Positions 1 through 5,682 of a stretch of 5,682 bases of DNA are shown one piece after another (the first letter of the stretch is position 1; each line of letters begins with the position of its first letter). The stretch covers positions 1 through 5,682 of the IMG/VR virus record IMGVR_UViG_2778261299_000006; one strand, written 5' to 3'. The stretch comes from a virus (Duplodnaviria; Heunggongvirae; Uroviricota; Caudoviricetes). The translations under genes and the position numbers were made by a program. The notes beneath the pieces were generated by a model that saw only the letters and a program-made list of their open reading frames with translations, did no database searches and was not told the DNA's origin.

Positions 1-111
1 GAAGCCAGCCACGCCGACCTCGCCTGGGCGACCATGCACGCCCTGTTAAATGAGCCACTCACCGCCGGTATCAGCACTCCGCTGACATCCACCATTCTGG
101 AGTTTTACTGA
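1..111 (+). CDS. P: Terminase large (ATPase) subunit, gpP-like; 3' end only, 5' end lies outside the window
   Basis: Frame 1 is open from base 1 for 36 codons (...LAWATMHALLNEPLTAGISTPLTSTILEFY) to TGA at 109-111, which overlaps the ATG of the next gene by one base (TGATG). In P2 the late operon reads P then Q, so the gene directly upstream of the portal is expected to be the terminase. The assignment rests on synteny only; 36 residues are too few to recognise the family directly. Confidence 0.6.
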   Translation, partial: EASHADLAWATMHALLNEPLTAGISTPLTSTILEFY

Positions 112-1130
112 TGAGCAAGAAAAAAGGGAAAACACCGCAACCTGCGGCAAAAACAATGACCGCCAGCGCCCCGAAAATGGAGGCATTCACCTTTGGTGAG
201 CCGGTACCGGTACTCGACCGCCGTGACATTCTGGATTACGTCGAGTGCATCAGTAACGGCAGATGGTATGAGCCGCCGGTCAGCTTTACCGGTCTGGCAA
301 AAAGCCTGCGTGCTGCCGTGCATCACAGCTCACCGATTTACGTCAAACGCAATATTCTGGCCTCGACATTTATCCCGCATCCGTGGCTTTCCCAGCAGGA
401 TTTCAGCCGCTTTGTGCTGGATTTTCTGGTGTTCGGTAATGCGTTTCTGGAAAAGCGTTACAGCACCACCGGTAAAGTTATCAGGCTGGAAACCTCACCG
501 GCAAAATATACCCGCCGTGGTGTGGAAGAGGATGTTTACTGGTGGGTGCCGTCCTTCAACGAGCCGACAGCCTTCGCGCCCGGCTCCGTGTTTCACCTGC
601 TGGAGCCGGATATTAATCAGGAGCTGTACGGCCTGCCGGAATATCTCAGCGCCCTTAACTCTGCCTGGCTGAATGAGTCGGCCACGCTGTTCCGCCGCAA
701 GTATTACGAAAACGGCGCACATGCCGGATACATCATGTACGTCACCGATGCCGTGCAGGATCGCAACGATATCGAAATGCTTCGCGAAAACATGGTTAAG
801 TCGAAAGGCCGCAATAACTTTAAAAACCTGTTTCTCTACGCCCCGCAGGGAAAAGCCGACGGTATTAAAATTATCCCGCTCAGTGAAGTGGCGACGAAGG
901 ACGATTTTTTTAATATCAAAAAAGCCAGTGCGGAAGATCTAATGAGTGCACATCGAGTCCCCCCGCAAATGATTGGGATGATGCCTAATAATGCAGGAGG
1001 ATTTGGCGATGTAGTTAAAGCTGCTAAAGTTTTTGTCAGGAATGAGTTAGGGCACCTACAATCGCGAATGAAGGAATTGAACTCATGGATAGGTGAAACC
1101 GTTATAACATTTAACAATTACTCGTTATAA
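111..1130 (+). CDS. Q: Phage portal protein, P2 gpQ-like (339 aa)
   Basis: ATG at 111 is preceded by GGAG (99-102) at an 8-nt spacing. The 339-aa product (MSKKKGKTPQPAAKTMTASAPKMEAFTFGEPVPVLDRRDILDYVECISNGRWYEPPV...) matches my recollection of the P2 portal protein Q. GC is about 55% over the first part of the gene. Position is consistent with P2 synteny: P then Q, then cos. Confidence 0.9.
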   Translation: MSKKKGKTPQPAAKTMTASAPKMEAFTFGEPVPVLDRRDILDYVECISNGRWYEPPVSFTGLAKSLRAAVHHSSPIYVKRNILASTFIPHPWLSQQDFSRFVLDFLVFGNAFLEKRYSTTGKVIRLETSPAKYTRRGVEEDVYWWVPSFNEPTAFAPGSVFHLLEPDINQELYGLPEYLSALNSAWLNESATLFRRKYYENGAHAGYIMYVTDAVQDRNDIEMLRENMVKSKGRNNFKNLFLYAPQGKADGIKIIPLSEVATKDDFFNIKKASAEDLMSAHRVPPQMIGMMPNNAGGFGDVVKAAKVFVRNELGHLQSRMKELNSWIGETVITFNNYSL

Positions 1131-1165: not shown

Positions 1166-1783
1166 TCAAGCAGATAGGCAAAACGTTTCTGTTTGCCCCA
1201 AGTGTTCAAACACAGTAATCGATGTTACTTTTCCGGCGCTTATTTTATTAAGGAATTTCAATATTTGTTGAGGCTCCTCCATGACTGCTGTTTTCTTGAT
1301 TATAAATCCTTCAAGATTTTTCAAGCTGTATCGCTGACTTGAGTTCTCAAGAGCAGCAATCATTGCCGAACTGCGCATATCTCTATGTCCACTAGCCCTA
1401 CAAACGACAGCATAATTTAAATCAAGCTCTACAAAATTTTGCCTTGTCAACTCTGGAAGGTGTTTACATACAAAATGAAATAAAGTCGTAACACCTTCAT
1501 GTATTTTCAACCTTATATCATCCTTTTGTGAACGTCCTTCTTTAAATTCAATGAAGTACAATTTATCTTCATGTAAAAATAAAGCATCCGGTGATTTTTC
1601 TTTAAGCTCACGCCTATAAATAGGCGAGCAATTTAACACCGTATCATAGTTAAAGCCCTTCGAATCACAAATAATAAAATACCGTCCCCCGGCATCATTG
1701 TAACTTAATTCGGTTACATCAACCATTGAATCATGGTATACTTCACATAATTTTCTAAAGATAAGCTCCTCATTAGAAATCAT
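1166..1783 (-). CDS. 205-aa partner protein of the ATPase, unknown family; possible PD-(D/E)xK-type nuclease effector
   Basis: ATG at 1783-1781 is preceded by AGGAG at a 7-nt spacing (minus-strand context gaatcAGGAGtatttggATG). The start overlaps the upstream ATPase gene by 11 nt, implying translational coupling. GC is about 30%. Residues 66-82 read DALFLHEDKLYFIEFKE, i.e. a hydrophobic strand ending in D73 followed by E79-x-K81, a pattern compatible with a PD-(D/E)xK core. I see no CxxC pairs as in HNH and no ordered E...DxD TOPRIM motif. Confidence 0.75.
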   Translation of the reverse strand: MISNEELIFRKLCEVYHDSMVDVTELSYNDAGGRYFIICDSKGFNYDTVLNCSPIYRRELKEKSPDALFLHEDKLYFIEFKEGRSQKDDIRLKIHEGVTTLFHFVCKHLPELTRQNFVELDLNYAVVCRASGHRDMRSSAMIAALENSSQRYSLKNLEGFIIKKTAVMEEPQQILKFLNKISAGKVTSITVFEHLGQTETFCLSA

Positions 1784-3101
1784 CCAAATACTCCTGATTC
1801 AATTCTTTTAATGGTGTTGCCAAAAGATTAATTGCATATGCAACATTATCAGTAATATCAACAAAAGATGTAAATTCTTCCCCAGGGAATCGCTCGCTTA
1901 TATAGAACCGATTTTCAACCCCAATTTTGTCGCTAAAATGTTTAAGAGCATCAATAATATATGGGCTATGTGTTGTAATTATTATATCAACCCCCATAGA
2001 CACTAACTCACAAATAATCTCAGCATAGAAAACCTGCCACTTTGGATGTAAGTTCACCTCTGGTTCATCAATAATCAGCAACGAATTATCTACTGCTGCC
2101 CCACACTTAACAAGCATATCAAGAATACCTAAAGACTTTATTCCTGACGCAATATTACTCGATGTGACTTTATAGCCTTGCTTCTCTAGAAAAAAATCAT
2201 TCTTTTCAATATCATAAACCACCTCACCACTGAAAGCGGCATTGATTTTTTTAGATATACGAAGTGATTCATTTAAAAATGAGCCATCATCAAAAATATC
2301 CGAATGCACGAATAAATTATAAACTGAATCGCTTAGTTTTATTGATAGATCTTTCACATGCAATGGAACAGTTAGACGTCCTGATTCACCGTTACTATCA
2401 AATAAAGTTTTAGCAAAACGAACCAAATTATGAAATTGCATAATACTTGGAGAGTCAACATATGTTGCGTCGACATATCCTAAGCCATCAGTATAATCAA
2501 ATTGTGATATACCATCTTTAGTCCATTTAATATCAATTAACTGACTAACACCATCAACAACTTCCAGAGATGCTTTAACTGGATTTTGATTACCCTTCTG
2601 AATAATTTCCCCTCTAAATTCAGAGTAAAAGGCCTTACGCAGAGCGCGGTTGATAGCAGATAACTCATCATCTGGCTCAAGCATTATATCTCTGATTTTT
2701 CTTATATCAGAGAGTACAGAATCCGCCATCAACTCTGGAAGAAGACCTTCATCAATCAATTTATATAGATAACTCTCCCTCTCAGCCAAAGTTTTAGAGA
2801 TATCTATTTTTAGAGAGGCATAAAATTTTCTTGGATTGAATAACTCTCTAATTTCCGGCGTAGCAGCAATATTAATCCTCCTACGCAGATTAAAATATAT
2901 TTTCTCTACAATAGATGTAATTCTATCCTCTTTGTCTTCTTCTAAATCTTCTTGATAACGAGATATCGCCTTTACCATTGAAAACAGTATCTTCCCTACG
3001 GTACTCTTTCCCGTATCATTTTCACCAGTTATGACAGTTAATCCACCAACTGAAACATCAGCTTCCGCAATAGTTCCAAAATTATTAATTTTTATACGCA
3101 T
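1773..3101 (-). CDS. ABC-type / AAA_21-like (OLD or SMC-like) P-loop ATPase, 442 aa; first gene of a two-gene operon
   Basis: Walker A GENDTGKST (aa 26-34) is encoded at 3003-3026, verified by reverse-complement translation. A signature-like SSNIASGIKSLG lies at aa 314-325. Walker B LLIIDEPE (aa 341-348) is encoded at 2061-2081, also verified. An H-loop-like IIITTHSP lies at aa 373-380. About 300 residues separate Walker A and B, which is typical of ABC/SMC-like defence ATPases. ATG at 3101-3099. GC is about 30%, far below the flanking phage core. Confidence 0.85.
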   Translation of the reverse strand: MRIKINNFGTIAEADVSVGGLTVITGENDTGKSTVGKILFSMVKAISRYQEDLEEDKEDRITSIVEKIYFNLRRRINIAATPEIRELFNPRKFYASLKIDISKTLAERESYLYKLIDEGLLPELMADSVLSDIRKIRDIMLEPDDELSAINRALRKAFYSEFRGEIIQKGNQNPVKASLEVVDGVSQLIDIKWTKDGISQFDYTDGLGYVDATYVDSPSIMQFHNLVRFAKTLFDSNGESGRLTVPLHVKDLSIKLSDSVYNLFVHSDIFDDGSFLNESLRISKKINAAFSGEVVYDIEKNDFFLEKQGYKVTSSNIASGIKSLGILDMLVKCGAAVDNSLLIIDEPEVNLHPKWQVFYAEIICELVSMGVDIIITTHSPYIIDALKHFSDKIGVENRFYISERFPGEEFTSFVDITDNVAYAINLLATPLKELNQEYLDDF

Positions 3102-3194: not shown

Positions 3195-3213
3195 GTGCTT
3201 TCCCCGCCTCGCC
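3195..3213. other. cos site: 19-nt cohesive-end sequence of P2-type phages (cosN), joined/intact form
   Basis: Plus strand 3195-3213 is gtgctttccccgcctcgcc, the exact reverse complement of GGCGAGGCGGGGAAAGCAC. I recall that sequence as the P2/P4 cohesive end, and it is at the expected place between the Q side and the A side of the genome. The orientation (GGCGAGG... reading on the minus strand toward Q) fits the P2 left end. Confidence 0.8.
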
Positions 3214-3335: not shown

Positions 3336-3366
3336 CACACAAAAACGGGGAAAGTCGCTTTCCCCC
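3336..3366 (-). terminator. Rho-independent terminator downstream of the 174-aa gene
   Basis: Minus strand reads GGGGAAAG-cga-CTTTCCCC (plus coordinates 3347-3365, an 8-bp perfect GC-rich stem) followed immediately by GTTTTTGTGTG. It starts 11 nt after the TGA stop of the 174-aa gene (3379-3377). Confidence 0.7.
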
Positions 3367-3376
3367 ACAAACATTA

Positions 3377-3901
3377 TCAACGCACCGGAATGTAAGATTC
3401 AAGGTCTCTGATTACGGCTTGTTTCAGTGCTTCAGATACAGCCTCAAGTTCTGGCAATGCTGGCTTTTCACTTAAGTTCGTTTCAAATTCCCCGCTTCCT
3501 ATTACTAGCGTAAAGCCATTTCCATCACGTAGCAGTTTCAAAGGAATAATCACGTTTAACTTAGGATGAGCAACCGGTGACTTATCCACTGTAAGACCAA
3601 TAAAAAATGACAAAATCCCATCTGCATCAGGCAACAGATCGTGTAACTGAACTTTAGATTTTTCACCATCTTTAATTGCAGCGACAAAAACATAATTTTC
3701 AGTGGGGTTTTGCCCTGGATAGCCCCAGCAAGTTTGCTCAAGCTCAAGCGACCCCTCAAAGTTTTTCGCAATCAGCCCAACAATATTTTGTAAACGCTCT
3801 TTTTCCTCTCTCTGTAACCGAACGATTTCAATATACTTATCTCTTATAGTCTGAAAAGTAATCACTTTAGTCTCCTTAAACGGCTTACACAGAAACAGCA
3901 T
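3377..3901 (-). CDS. Hypothetical protein, 174 aa (162 aa if it starts at GTG 3865); orphan accessory gene at the tin/old-equivalent position
   Basis: ORF from ATG 3901-3899 to TGA 3379-3377. GGGGG lies 4 nt upstream of the ATG. An alternative start GTG at 3865-3863 is preceded by AAGGAG at a 5-nt spacing, a better-positioned SD. The gene has its own intrinsic terminator (3336-3366). GC is about 40-42%. I recognise no family motif by eye. Confidence 0.65.
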   Translation of the reverse strand: MLFLCKPFKETKVITFQTIRDKYIEIVRLQREEKERLQNIVGLIAKNFEGSLELEQTCWGYPGQNPTENYVFVAAIKDGEKSKVQLHDLLPDADGILSFFIGLTVDKSPVAHPKLNVIIPLKLLRDGNGFTLVIGSGEFETNLSEKPALPELEAVSEALKQAVIRDLESYIPVR

Positions 3902-3929: not shown

Positions 3930-4213
3930 AATTTTCCTAACGCCTCGCTACGCTCGTTGTTCAACCCCGTCAGCCCTGAAAACAAGTTTCACGACTGGCG
4001 GCGTTCTCTATCGTCTGCGTGGTGGTGACGTAACTCTTGATTGACCGATATGGTTAAACCGCCCGTCATTATCCCGGACTATTTCGGCACACCCGACCAG
4101 CTCATCGGGCGTCAGATTTTCGTTGACCATAATCCGCTGTAAACGCTGAACAATAGCCATCAGCTTGATATTTTTAGTTTTATGGTGCGGTATCTCGCCT
4201 GGTATTCTGTGCA

Positions 4214-4666
4214 TTATCCAAGCCACCCGTTTTGCTGTGCACGCTCCATCTGTTCATCTGAATAGTTCCATGCTCCATCCGTGGCAACCATTGCCCCGCC
4301 AGACATCCCTGTCTCTGGTTCATACATAACAGCAAGGCCGAGCTGATGCATAATTTCATGATTAATTCTGAATACCAGACCACGCTCACTAAGTTCTTTC
4401 CAGTTCACAATCTCATATGCGCATGTATTAAGCAGATCAATACTTAGCAAGACATAATCTTCCAGCCAGTCTGACAGGTCAGTAACATCTGTTATCCGGG
4501 CTTCAACCTTTCGCCCCGTGTACACACCCTGCACCCATTCATGCAAAATCAACGTGTCCCCGCGCTCATAATTACGGTCATTTTTCCGAAACTCTGCGCG
4601 TTTCTTTCCTTCCAGCACAAGGTCGAAATATTTTGCGTGCAGCTTTACCTCGTGAATTTTTGCCAT
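4214..4666 (-). CDS. ASCH / DUF3850-like domain protein (orf91-position gene) with a C-terminal extension carrying HEIMH; 150 aa
   Basis: True start is taken as ATG 4666-4664 (MAKIHEVKLHAKYFDLVLEGKKRAEFRKNDRNYERGDTLILHEW...), not the upstream GTG at 4702 reported in the ORF track. GGAG lies 8 nt upstream. The ATG overlaps the TAA stop of gene A by one base (TAATG). The N-terminal ~75 aa resemble the ASCH-like DUF3850 pattern as I recall it. The C-terminal half contains INHEIMHQLGL...YEPE. The position immediately downstream of A matches P2 orf91. Confidence 0.75.
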   Translation of the reverse strand: MAKIHEVKLHAKYFDLVLEGKKRAEFRKNDRNYERGDTLILHEWVQGVYTGRKVEARITDVTDLSDWLEDYVLLSIDLLNTCAYEIVNWKELSERGLVFRINHEIMHQLGLAVMYEPETGMSGGAMVATDGAWNYSDEQMERAQQNGWLG

Positions 4667-5682
4667 TATGTCCACTCCATTACTGTTGAGAATCCCGGCC
4701 ACTCATCAGCGACCGGATACGTGAATTTTTTCCCGTCATAATTTACGGTCGCGCCACGCGCCAGCGCCTCAAGCTCCCATCGCTGCGGCCTGATACCGTT
4801 CTGAGCAAGGTCAACGCGGATACGGGTAATTTGCATTCTTTCCGACCGGGTCAGTCTGACCGATGGTGCAATTTCATGTGGTTTTAACGGGCTTCCGTTT
4901 CTTTGCTGACGGTTTGGCGTTCTCAGGTCGTGTTTTAATGCGCCCCTGAGCGCCCTCACGACCTCCGGTTCATTCCATTCAATAACACCGCCATCAACCA
5001 GATTAAGCACTGCTGCGGCGTGCTCAGAAGGTGTGGGAACCAGTAACGAAGTATCACCACCGGAGAGCTTTCCACAGTTATTGACAGGACTCCGAGGCGC
5101 GGCGATGCCGCTTTTTAAAGTCAAAGGCTCAACGACCGGCACTTTCGGCACAATGCGCCAGTCCGTGGTTCTGGTGATATGAATATGACGCGCGCCGAGA
5201 TGCGGCGCGTAAATGCCGACCACTCTCTCGACTTCTTCCTCGTACTCGTTAACGTCATCCGACGGGCTACGGGCGACCCTGACAGTCTGACAATCGCGCG
5301 GGACATTTGCCCCGCCCTGCGCGCTGATATACAACGCAAAATCACCACTGTCTGCGGCGGCGCGTGCAGCCTCGACGCGTTCGTCAAACTCATCAGCAAT
5401 GCTGACGCCGCGAGGCAATTTGCGTAGTTCACGGTAAGCACCCATTGTCGGCAGGCCAACCGTTTTAAATTGCGGAATGCGCCACGTTGACGCCCATGCG
5501 GTAACAGCCGCGGCAGTATCTTTCAGCGGTCTGCCGGTATCGTTATCGAGCTGCCCATCCAGTGCATAGCCGTCGATATTTTTTGAGATGTATTTCGCGA
5601 TATACCCCGCAGCACCGCCCCGGTTAAGGTGTTTTGCCTGAAAACGGTTTCGCGCGGCTCCTCTTTCGTCACCATCCTCTTT
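4666..5682 (-). CDS. A: Rolling-circle replication initiator, P2 gpA-like; C-terminal 338 codons, 5' end outside the window
   Basis: I translated the minus-strand frame by hand from 5682 down to TAA at 4668-4666 and found no stop, so the gene enters from beyond the window edge. It contains GYIAKYISKNIDGY (Tyr codons at 5604-5602 and 5592-5590), the Y-x-x-K-Y two-tyrosine motif of phiX174/P2-type RCR initiators. The second Tyr is 308 residues from the C-terminus, which fits the P2 A active-site position as I remember it. GC is about 55%. Confidence 0.9.
   Translation of the reverse strand, partial: KEDGDERGAARNRFQAKHLNRGGAAGYIAKYISKNIDGYALDGQLDNDTGRPLKDTAAAVTAWASTWRIPQFKTVGLPTMGAYRELRKLPRGVSIADEFDERVEAARAAADSGDFALYISAQGGANVPRDCQTVRVARSPSDDVNEYEEEVERVVGIYAPHLGARHIHITRTTDWRIVPKVPVVEPLTLKSGIAAPRSPVNNCGKLSGGDTSLLVPTPSEHAAAVLNLVDGGVIEWNEPEVVRALRGALKHDLRTPNRQQRNGSPLKPHEIAPSVRLTRSERMQITRIRVDLAQNGIRPQRWELEALARGATVNYDGKKFTYPVADEWPGFSTVMEWT

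Follow-up and report, generated by a model that had tools for sequence, protein, structure and literature searches.

The gene that follows gene A in the analyzed stretch of viral DNA (5,682 nucleotides, hereafter the window) is, in the reading that we favor, an intact accessory early gene of a P2-like prophage. Its product probably consists of two modules that fold independently, with a short linker between them, and the C-terminal module, DUF7415, would act as a portable docking or ligand module. We hold the underlying statements of identity with high confidence: the gene, here called orf150, is intact and coupled to gpA, its product carries two catalogued domain families, and the HExxH motif in its C-terminal part is not a feature of the family to which that part belongs. 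The original prediction had drawn attention to this motif as a possible sign of a metal-dependent hydrolase.

Gene order at the end of the early operon

The window covers the right end of an E. coli prophage of the P2-like (Peduovirus) type, in reverse reading (Table 1). The reading frame of gene A is open from 5682 and closes with a TAA at 4668..4666. Its product matches phrog_91, "nicking at origin of replication," with an E-value of 1e-78, and the gene has 96.5% identity with P2 A. The same strand continues with orf150, orf68, and orf174. The phrog_11386 match of orf68 begins at the MHRIPGEI start, and RefSeq annotates a hypothetical protein at the same position. The hairpin directly past orf174 is the probable end of the early operon. 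Based on the cos 19-mer, the region is the gpA-cos-gpQ hotspot of a P2-like prophage, and this interval has been described as a variable hotspot of P2-like phages (PMC9122126). Past cos, the window holds an AAA_21/AAA_15 ATPase, an ORF of 205 aa, and then, on the plus strand, the portal gene Q.

Table 1. Features around orf150, with positions given in the numbering of the window
Feature	Position	Strand	Remarks
Gene A (gpA, rolling-circle nickase), 3' part	4666..5682	-	Replication initiator; ORF open to the window edge
Coupling junction of gene A and orf150	4664..4678	-	GGAG at 4678..4675, 8-nt spacer, TAATG at 4668..4664
orf150, stop codon included	4214..4666	-	Two-domain accessory early gene (DUF3850/ASCH + DUF7415)
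DUF3850/ASCH-like PUA-type beta-barrel domain, residues 4-76	4439..4657	-	Carries G21-x-K23-x-x-E26-x-R28
DUF7415 core, residues 86-135	4262..4411	-	Helix 89-94, helix 97-109, hairpin 111-115/122-127, D-G-x-W-x-Y segment
HEIMH (H103 E104 I105 M106 H107)	4346..4360	-	On helix 97-109; family conservation limited to E104 and H107
orf68	4008..4214	-	Next operon gene; its ATG at 4214..4212 shares a second TAATG with the orf150 stop
orf174	3377..3901	-	Final gene of the same-strand block; phrog_5091, E 2e-13
Terminator-like hairpin and T-run	3345..3368	-	Directly past orf174; from a consensus scan only
cos cohesive-end 19-mer GGCGAGGCGGGGAAAGCAC	3195..3213	-	BLAST against the P2 right-end/left-end junction

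The start of orf150 and its junction with gene A

The gene was confirmed as it had been called, on the minus strand from ATG 4666..4664 to TAA 4216..4214, with a product of 150 aa. The TAATG in which the gene A stop overlaps the orf150 start is present, as are the GGAG 8 nt 5' of the ATG and, in the product, INHEIMHQLGLAVMYEPE with its HEIMH. The residue numbers assigned to the motif (H115, E116, and H119) were wrong: counted from the 4666 start, HEIMH occupies residues 103-107 (nt 4360..4346). The earlier numbers fit a count from GTG 4702, an in-frame codon further upstream within gene A.

ATG 4666 is the true start, since the alignments with PF12961 and PDB 3IUW begin at residue 3-4, the relatives begin with MAKIHE or MMAKIHE, and the sequence at this point in P2, Wphi, and P24A7b is ATGATG, with the stop/start overlap kept. 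In these three phages, the TGA stop of gene A overlaps the first ATG of ATGATG to give an ATGA overlap, and the junction of a Salmonella relative is likewise an ATGA overlap. A G-to-A change in the window produces ATAATG, so that the overlap is retained in another form. The proposed translational coupling of orf150 to gene A is supported, with the overlap conserved in these relatives. From the sequence of the junction, we predict that orf150 is co-translated with gpA through the overlapping stop and start codons.

Two catalogued domains in one product

Both halves of the orf150 product belong to Pfam families. The N-terminus had been taken for a DUF3850/ASCH-like domain, and both corresponding profiles score above their cut-offs, PF12961 (DUF3850) with 65.2 bits against 22.9 over residues 4-76 (profile positions 1-77 of 77) and PF04266 (ASCH) with 42.3 bits against 21.2. 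The C-terminal half matches PF24187 (DUF7415) with 54.0 bits against a cut-off of 27, at residues 86-128 and profile positions 1-52 of 53. The earlier description of orf150 as an ASCH-like DUF3850 module joined to a separate C-terminal one is borne out by PF12961 and PF24187. Nearly the full length of the protein (residues 1-149 of 150) also matches phrog_1812 with an E-value of 8e-82. Its PHROG matches are all labeled function unknown or "RNA-binding," and RefSeq calls the same gene "DUF3850 domain-containing protein."

We built an AF2 model of the protein on an alignment of 129 sequences, and only this alignment-based model was used (a single-sequence model had a pLDDT of 34). The mean pLDDT was 91 and the pTM 0.56, with a block of about 75 in the linker. 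Residues 4-78 are modeled as a strand-rich barrel followed by the weaker linker, and the C-terminal part as helix 89-94, helix 97-109, a hairpin formed by 111-115 and 122-127, and helix 137-145, at pLDDT 93-97. The pTM of only 0.56 and the weaker linker fit two independent domains whose mutual orientation is not fixed.

The N-terminal domain has the PUA-like beta-barrel fold in this model. It also carries GxKxxExR, reportedly the signature of ASCH domains, which we read from the translation as G21-K22-K23-R24-A25-E26-F27-R28; the K, R, E, and R of the motif are conserved in aligned orf150 orthologues. We compared this segment by eye with the YqfB-type ASCH N4-acetylcytidine amidohydrolases of E. 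coli (PDB 9KYF), using what we take to be the YqfB motif, G-R-K-T-I-T-I-R. In this alignment orf150 keeps the Lys (K23) but has Glu26 at the position of the Thr24 nucleophile, which places it in the canonical GxKxxExR type of ASCH and not in the amidohydrolase type. Catalysis by YqfB involves Lys21, Thr24, and Glu74 (PMC9599836). Another relative of the N-terminal domain is the Enterococcus faecalis "activating signal cointegrator" PDB 3IUW, a DUF3850 structural-genomics entry of 83 aa; unlike orf150, it is a single-domain protein without DUF7415.

The C-terminal domain and the truncated copy in P2

Orf150 is longer than its counterpart in P2, as had been noted. The P2 protein had been put at roughly 91 aa; its annotated length is 109 aa (NC_001895), compared with 150 aa here. 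P2 Orf91 (NP_046796, "DUF3850 domain-containing protein") occupies the same locus after gene A, has the overlapping stop and start, and is near-identical in its DUF3850 domain to residue ~74, but it lacks DUF7415. Homology with P2 ends at window position 4446, which is codon 74, and gives way to unrelated sequence before tin/old. A comparison table lists Orf91 as function unknown (PMC3091744).

Two further relatives cover the whole gene. Peduovirus P24A7b has a 151-aa ORF with 98% identity and the same intact two-domain form. Wphi covers the whole 150-codon region at 85.5% identity, but there it is split into two ORFs, gp91 (93 aa) and gp92. Relative to the window and P24A7b, the Wphi split is due to four 1-nt insertions, three of them within ~30 nt, which bring in two in-frame stops. 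It looks like an old sequencing error or decay.

One explanation to consider is that the C-terminal 74 aa are a non-functional read-through, created by a frameshift or by loss of a stop codon relative to P2 orf91. Such an origin had been raised earlier as something to check, and it would account for P2 Orf91 lacking the segment and for the annotation of Wphi as two ORFs. The distribution of the gene refutes it: the two-domain form is the common one, and the P2 copy is truncated. Complete E. coli genomes carry the gene in 380 cases, and 346 of these hold at least 80% of it, the full two-domain form. The other copies mostly end at query base 221 (codon 74), and PGAP labels such shortened copies as "missing C-terminus" pseudogenes. 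Prophages of Salmonella and Enterobacter have the same two-domain architecture directly after gpA at 51-57% identity, and the segment is retained in orthologues of ~53% identity. In addition, the segment belongs to a Pfam domain for which 194 representative homologues were found and is modeled at pLDDT 93-97, P2 diverges completely past codon 74, and the Wphi split comes from 1-nt insertions. We leave practically no probability for the read-through explanation, and regard it as already refuted. From these comparisons, P2 Orf91 can be read as a derivative that was truncated at the domain boundary when hotspot cargo was replaced.

Divergence among E. coli alleles differs between the two parts of the gene. 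The ratio dN/dS is ~0-0.07 in the N-terminal domain and 0.2-0.3 in the DUF7415 core, on small counts. The C-terminal half of orf150 also shows a roughly doubled dS, consistent with its position at the edge of a recombining hotspot.

Conservation of the HEIMH motif

The original prediction had suggested that the C-terminal segment could be a small zincin-like or SprT-like hydrolase fused to a nucleic-acid-binding ASCH module. In such an enzyme, H103 and H107 would bind zinc, E104 would be the general base, and E116 or E118 would provide the third ligand. Several features point in this direction. HEIMH lies on a predicted helix with H103 and H107 (i, i+4) on the same face, and close E. coli alleles keep the motif. 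In the wider family, E104 and H107 are conserved, and acidic residues are also frequent at positions 116 (Asp 61 and Glu 17 of 145 sequences) and 118 (Glu 64 and Asp 31 of 145). The chance of a HExxH in a protein of this length had been put at a few percent. It is indeed small, and the figure itself is lower, at 1.3% in shuffles of the orf150 protein and ~0.45% for generic composition; at these rates the motif is unusual for a single protein and unremarkable over a genome scan.

We evaluated the motif across the family. An exhaustive phmmer search with residues 77-150 against 1.84 billion representatives returned 194 homologues at E ≤ 1e-3, of which 145 were selected for a conservation alignment as representatives at the 50% identity level. 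The strongest columns are N102 and G110 (all 145 sequences), G96 (143), H107 and S122 (140 each), and E104 (122); I101, G120, and D130 are also conserved. Position 108 is Pro in 136/145 and Gln in orf150. The family-invariant residues G96, I101, N102, H107, G110, L111, A112, G120, and S122 are all present in orf150. The DUF7415 signature can be written as W-N-x-L-S-x-x-G-L-x-x-R-I-N-x-E-[IV]-[LM]-H-P-L-G-L-A ... T-G-x-S-x-G-A-L-V-x-x-D-G-x-W-x-Y.

Conservation of HEIMH in close relatives had been among the checks named beforehand for the hydrolase proposal, and across the family the first His is not conserved. Position 103 is His in only 14 of the 145 sequences, compared with Arg in 56, Lys in 26 (82 for the two basic residues), Thr in 18, and Asn in 12. 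The two-domain orthologues of Salmonella read INYEVLH, with Tyr at 103, and one reads INHEVLN; a fusion with the domains in reverse order, DUF7415-DUF3850, reads INREVLH, with Arg. HEIMH is thus the DUF7415 signature with a His at a variable position, a lineage-specific coincidence and not a conserved active site. On the same alignment, His at 103 appears as a peculiarity of the enterobacterial P2-like branch.

Structure and profile searches agree with this result. A Pfam scan of orf150 at E ≤ 1 found no peptidase family, and among PDB sequences the DUF7415 profile had only chance matches at E ≥ 0.88, the best being a beta-glucosidase. In a BFVD fold search with the two-domain model as query, the C-terminal domain matched only DUF7415 proteins. 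Fold searches with this model returned no peptidase or enzyme analogue of the C-terminal domain, with the qualification that matches to the N-terminal domain may outrank a distant analogue. The model does not show the fold of zincin-type metallopeptidases, SprT-like enzymes and minigluzincins included, in which a mixed beta-sheet and a backing helix precede the active-site helix and a C-terminal subdomain provides the third ligand. The conserved core is only ~50 aa, with a hairpin after the motif helix and no sheet before it. The smallest known zincin catalytic domains have ~100 aa and a beta-sheet before the active-site helix.

The likeness to zincin or SprT-like HExxH metallopeptidases is therefore limited to a literal H-E-x-x-H on a helix, followed by acidic residues. 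In orf150, by contrast, the HExxH is unconserved in its family, there is no fold or profile similarity, and the domain is only half as large as the smallest zincins known. The segment is DUF7415, and its assignment as a metal hydrolase is not supported. Family conservation largely refutes that assignment, and we consider it very improbable.

A helical wheel of helix 97-109, drawn from the AF2 secondary structure, places L97, V98, I101, I105, and L109 on the buried side and R100, position 103, E104, and H107 on the exposed side. A conserved exposed patch on this predicted helix suggests binding rather than a zinc site.

DUF7415 across phages

Most DUF7415 homologues, from phages and prophages of Gammaproteobacteria, are single-module proteins that stand alone and measure 60-130 aa. 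The family member of RB16, p170, lies in an early small-gene cluster near nudE, and that of Klebsiella phage Phi_KR1 (gp256) is wedged between nrdD and nrdG. Standalone copies also occur in Aeromonas phage 65.2 and Proteus phage phiP4-3, and in the late operon of Pseudomonas P2-like prophages, a DUF7415 gene of 69 aa separates gpL from gpX. The RB16, Phi_KR1, 65.2, and phiP4-3 proteins share the ~50-aa core with orf150 at 41-52% identity. They differ from it in being single-domain proteins at unrelated genomic positions, with R, K, or T in place of His before the Glu. A further difference is the C-terminal helix ending in K-x-x-G-W-L, a feature of the P2-like branch that most standalone copies lack.

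DUF7415 is also fused to other domains. A MazZ-like dATP/dGTP pyrophosphohydrolase (PF04447) is the partner in three representatives, and an Rv2179c-like 3'-5' exonuclease (PF16473) and a thymidylate kinase (PF02223) in one each; further partners are a ClpX-type zinc finger, PGDYG, and DUF551. Two fusions come from P2-like elements. The reverse-order DUF7415-DUF3850 protein (P0100) is encoded directly after the gpA gene in a different P2-like phage, and the early operon of another P2-like prophage encodes the fusion with the exonuclease, upstream of Dam, a gene of the PAPS-reductase type, and gpA.

The DUF7415 core is acidic, with a median pI of 4.7 and a median net charge of -3, which argues against a simple DNA-binding winged helix. 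We rejected Xis-like winged-helix DNA binding (helix-helix-hairpin) as a primary model for this reason. We also rejected gpA as a general partner of DUF7415, based on the standalone copies in T4-like phages and in the Pseudomonas late operon, away from gpA. A literature search returned no paper mentioning DUF7415 and, for DUF3850, only a survey of ParB fusions.

Possible roles of DUF7415 and orf150

In the mechanism that we propose, residues 4-76, the DUF3850/ASCH barrel, would be the part that recognizes a nucleic acid or nucleotide. DUF7415 (~86-135) would be a self-sufficient, portable docking or ligand-binding module. The exposed face of its helix (R100, position 103, E104, and H107), together with the hairpin, would contact a partner that is conserved across Gammaproteobacteria or their phages. 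In this way, DUF7415 could recruit or regulate the attached domain, which is ASCH in orf150 and a dNTP pyrophosphohydrolase, a 3'-5' exonuclease, or a thymidylate kinase elsewhere. Since DUF7415 occurs on either side of DUF3850 and also on other nucleotide-processing enzymes, it probably localizes or regulates these domains and does not form a composite active site with them.

We offer this docking mechanism tentatively. It is an argument of guilt by association, drawn from a handful of fusions (three pyrophosphohydrolases, one exonuclease, one kinase, and several DUF3850 proteins). The contexts of the standalone copies, in T4-like early clusters, in the nrdD/nrdG gap, and in the gpL-gpX late operon, are heterogeneous, and no single partner is implied by them.

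A small catalytic or metal/ligand site could also account for the dense polar conservation (N102, E104, H107, S122, and D130). Through these residues, DUF7415 could be a non-zincin mini catalytic domain, or one that binds a small ligand or metal such as a nucleotide or a divalent metal, with substrates shared with its partner domains (nucleotides and nucleic-acid ends). Polar conservation of this density is unusual for a 50-aa domain. The identifiable partners, PF04447, PF16473, PF02223, and DUF3850, all count as nucleotide- or nucleic-acid-processing, and the neighbors in T4-like phages include nrdD/nrdG and nudE. However, this domain of fifty residues had no structural analogue among enzymes in fold and PDB profile searches, and most copies occur on their own as proteins of 60-90 aa, a form more usual for binders or inhibitors. 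On the helical wheel, moreover, N102 borders the hydrophobic face of its helix and may be structural. We judge a catalytic or small-ligand role of this kind unlikely.

DUF7415 could instead be a counter-defence or host-takeover protein, an inhibitor or decoy of a conserved host factor that was fused opportunistically, as in polyvalent proteins. On this view, which overlaps with docking, orf150 would serve as an anti-defence gene bordering the P2 defence hotspot. The explanation is consistent with the small size of DUF7415, its acidity (median pI 4.7), its restriction to phages and prophages, and its accessory positions, which include T4-like early clusters, the moron-like gpL-gpX slot, and the gpA-gpQ hotspot. 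Among the ~2,200 E. coli genomes with a match to the window, only 380 carry the gene, which is thus accessory rather than core. On the other hand, PADLOC and NCBIfam scans of orf150, orf68, and orf174 gave no match, and the literature search on DUF7415 returned nothing. Strong synteny and gpA coupling in several P2-like lineages would fit a replication-accessory role equally well. Orf150 shares the location of the known defence cargo between gpA and gpQ (Rousset et al. 2022), but without a PADLOC match. Given the strand that it shares with gpA and its coupling to that gene, orf150 appears to belong to the early lytic operon and not to prophage-expressed defence cargo. A counter-defence role is somewhat unlikely in our view, if a little less so than a catalytic one.

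Significance

Our favored reading remains that of an intact, gpA-coupled early gene with two independent modules. With the claim of a new metallohydrolase gone, the finding is an ordinary one. Orf150 is already catalogued through two Pfam DUFs, PHROG 1812, and RefSeq, and is a hypothetical protein in hundreds of E. coli prophages. It does show that the reference copy in P2 is truncated, so that "orf91" in the literature under-represents the actual gene.

The fusion of DUF3850 and DUF7415 in both orders beside gpA is a Rosetta-stone type of argument for their joint action. DUF7415 is also repeatedly joined to enzymes of nucleotide metabolism, which offers a concrete, inexpensive hypothesis about a DUF that is widespread in phages. 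In its boldest form, which we consider a long shot, DUF7415 would be an autonomous phage mini-domain of ~50 aa with a near-invariant surface (R100, E104, H107, S122, and D130) for a single conserved target, which could be a host protein or a nucleotide-type ligand. It would be bolted onto enzymes that process nucleotides and nucleic acids so that they are localized or regulated, and in P2-like phages it would act at or near the rolling-circle replication driven by gpA. If this is true, DUF7415 would stand for a new module, with a targeting or regulatory task in the nucleotide metabolism of phages or in counter-defence.

Genes downstream of orf150

The ATG of orf68 overlaps the stop codon of orf150 in a second TAATG, and thus translational coupling links A, orf150, and orf68 in series. 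In phage Wphi, a 1-nt insertion joins the final part of the DUF7415 region to the orf68 reading frame. Within orf150 itself, the window allele carries D78 and C82 substitutions in the linker between the domains (window 4421-4435), two positions that are E and G in the other E. coli alleles that were compared. Farther downstream, orf174 had no match in Pfam, PADLOC, or NCBIfam, and the terminator-like hairpin that follows it probably marks where the early operon ends. The coordinates of these and other features are summarized in the table.

Features of the window and DUF7415 fusion loci of other phages and prophages
Feature	Sequence	Position	Strand	Remarks
orf68, phrog_11386 (function not assigned)	window	4008-4216 including overlap; ATG 4214..4212	minus	
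orf174, phrog_5091 (function not assigned)	window	within 3345-3901	minus	
Terminator-like hairpin	window	3368..3345	minus	3' of orf174, just ahead of cos
P2 cos 19-mer GGCGAGGCGGGGAAAGCAC	window	3213..3195	minus	
AAA_21/AAA_15 ATPase gene	window	3101..1773	minus	442 aa
205-aa ORF	window	1783..1166	minus	overlaps ATPase gene
Portal ORF (Q)	window	111..1130	plus	
DUF7415 fusion locus	L010	5001-5879		
DUF7415 fusion locus	L013	5001-5864		
DUF7415 fusion locus	L012	1230-2777		

DUF7415 in other phages

DUF7415 was found with several partners and in several genomic settings. A different P2-like phage, with genes for a CI-type repressor, CP76, and Ogr/Delta, encodes a 191-aa protein with the reversed domain order, DUF7415 followed by DUF3850, directly 3' of its gpA-family gene (locus L007, 6001-6576). 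Other fusion partners include a MazZ-like dATP/dGTP pyrophosphohydrolase, a thymidylate kinase, and an Rv2179c-like exonuclease. The gene for the exonuclease fusion belongs to a P2-like early operon, where it adjoins Dam and a PAPS-reductase-like gene. The domain also occurs as a standalone gene, which lies in the late operon between gpL and gpX in Pseudomonas P2-like prophages (locus L014, 5001-5210). In Klebsiella phage Phi_KR1 it lies between nrdD, whose end it overlaps, and a nrdG-like Fer4_12 gene (locus L005, 2977-3210).

Four proteins from E. coli contigs (P0001, P0004, P0009, and P0014) are products of chimeric ORFs that attach a Cox-like N-terminus (MSKQVTLMTDAIPYQEFAKLIGK...) to the end of DUF3850 or straight to DUF7415. 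They are probably remnants of P2-like prophages that lost the entire early operon, from cox through orf91, by deletion but kept the hotspot.

The Q side of cos

Based on the position of the cos 19-mer, the ATPase gene and the 205-aa ORF (together window 1166-3101) lie between cos and the portal gene, and therefore on the Q side of cos, whereas P2 carries tin and old on the A side. In PADLOC, the ATPase had only partial matches (HEC-02A, 1e-33; PD-T4-4_A, 6e-31; AriA; PtuA; Old), and phrog_25533 was the sole match to the 205-aa ORF across Pfam, PHROG, and PADLOC. The pair is a candidate two-gene defence cassette. Because homology to P2 gene Q restarts only at window 928..1, the final ~67 codons of the portal ORF (929-1130) and the spacer between Q and cos are unlike P2, which suggests that cargo exchange extended into the 3' end of Q.
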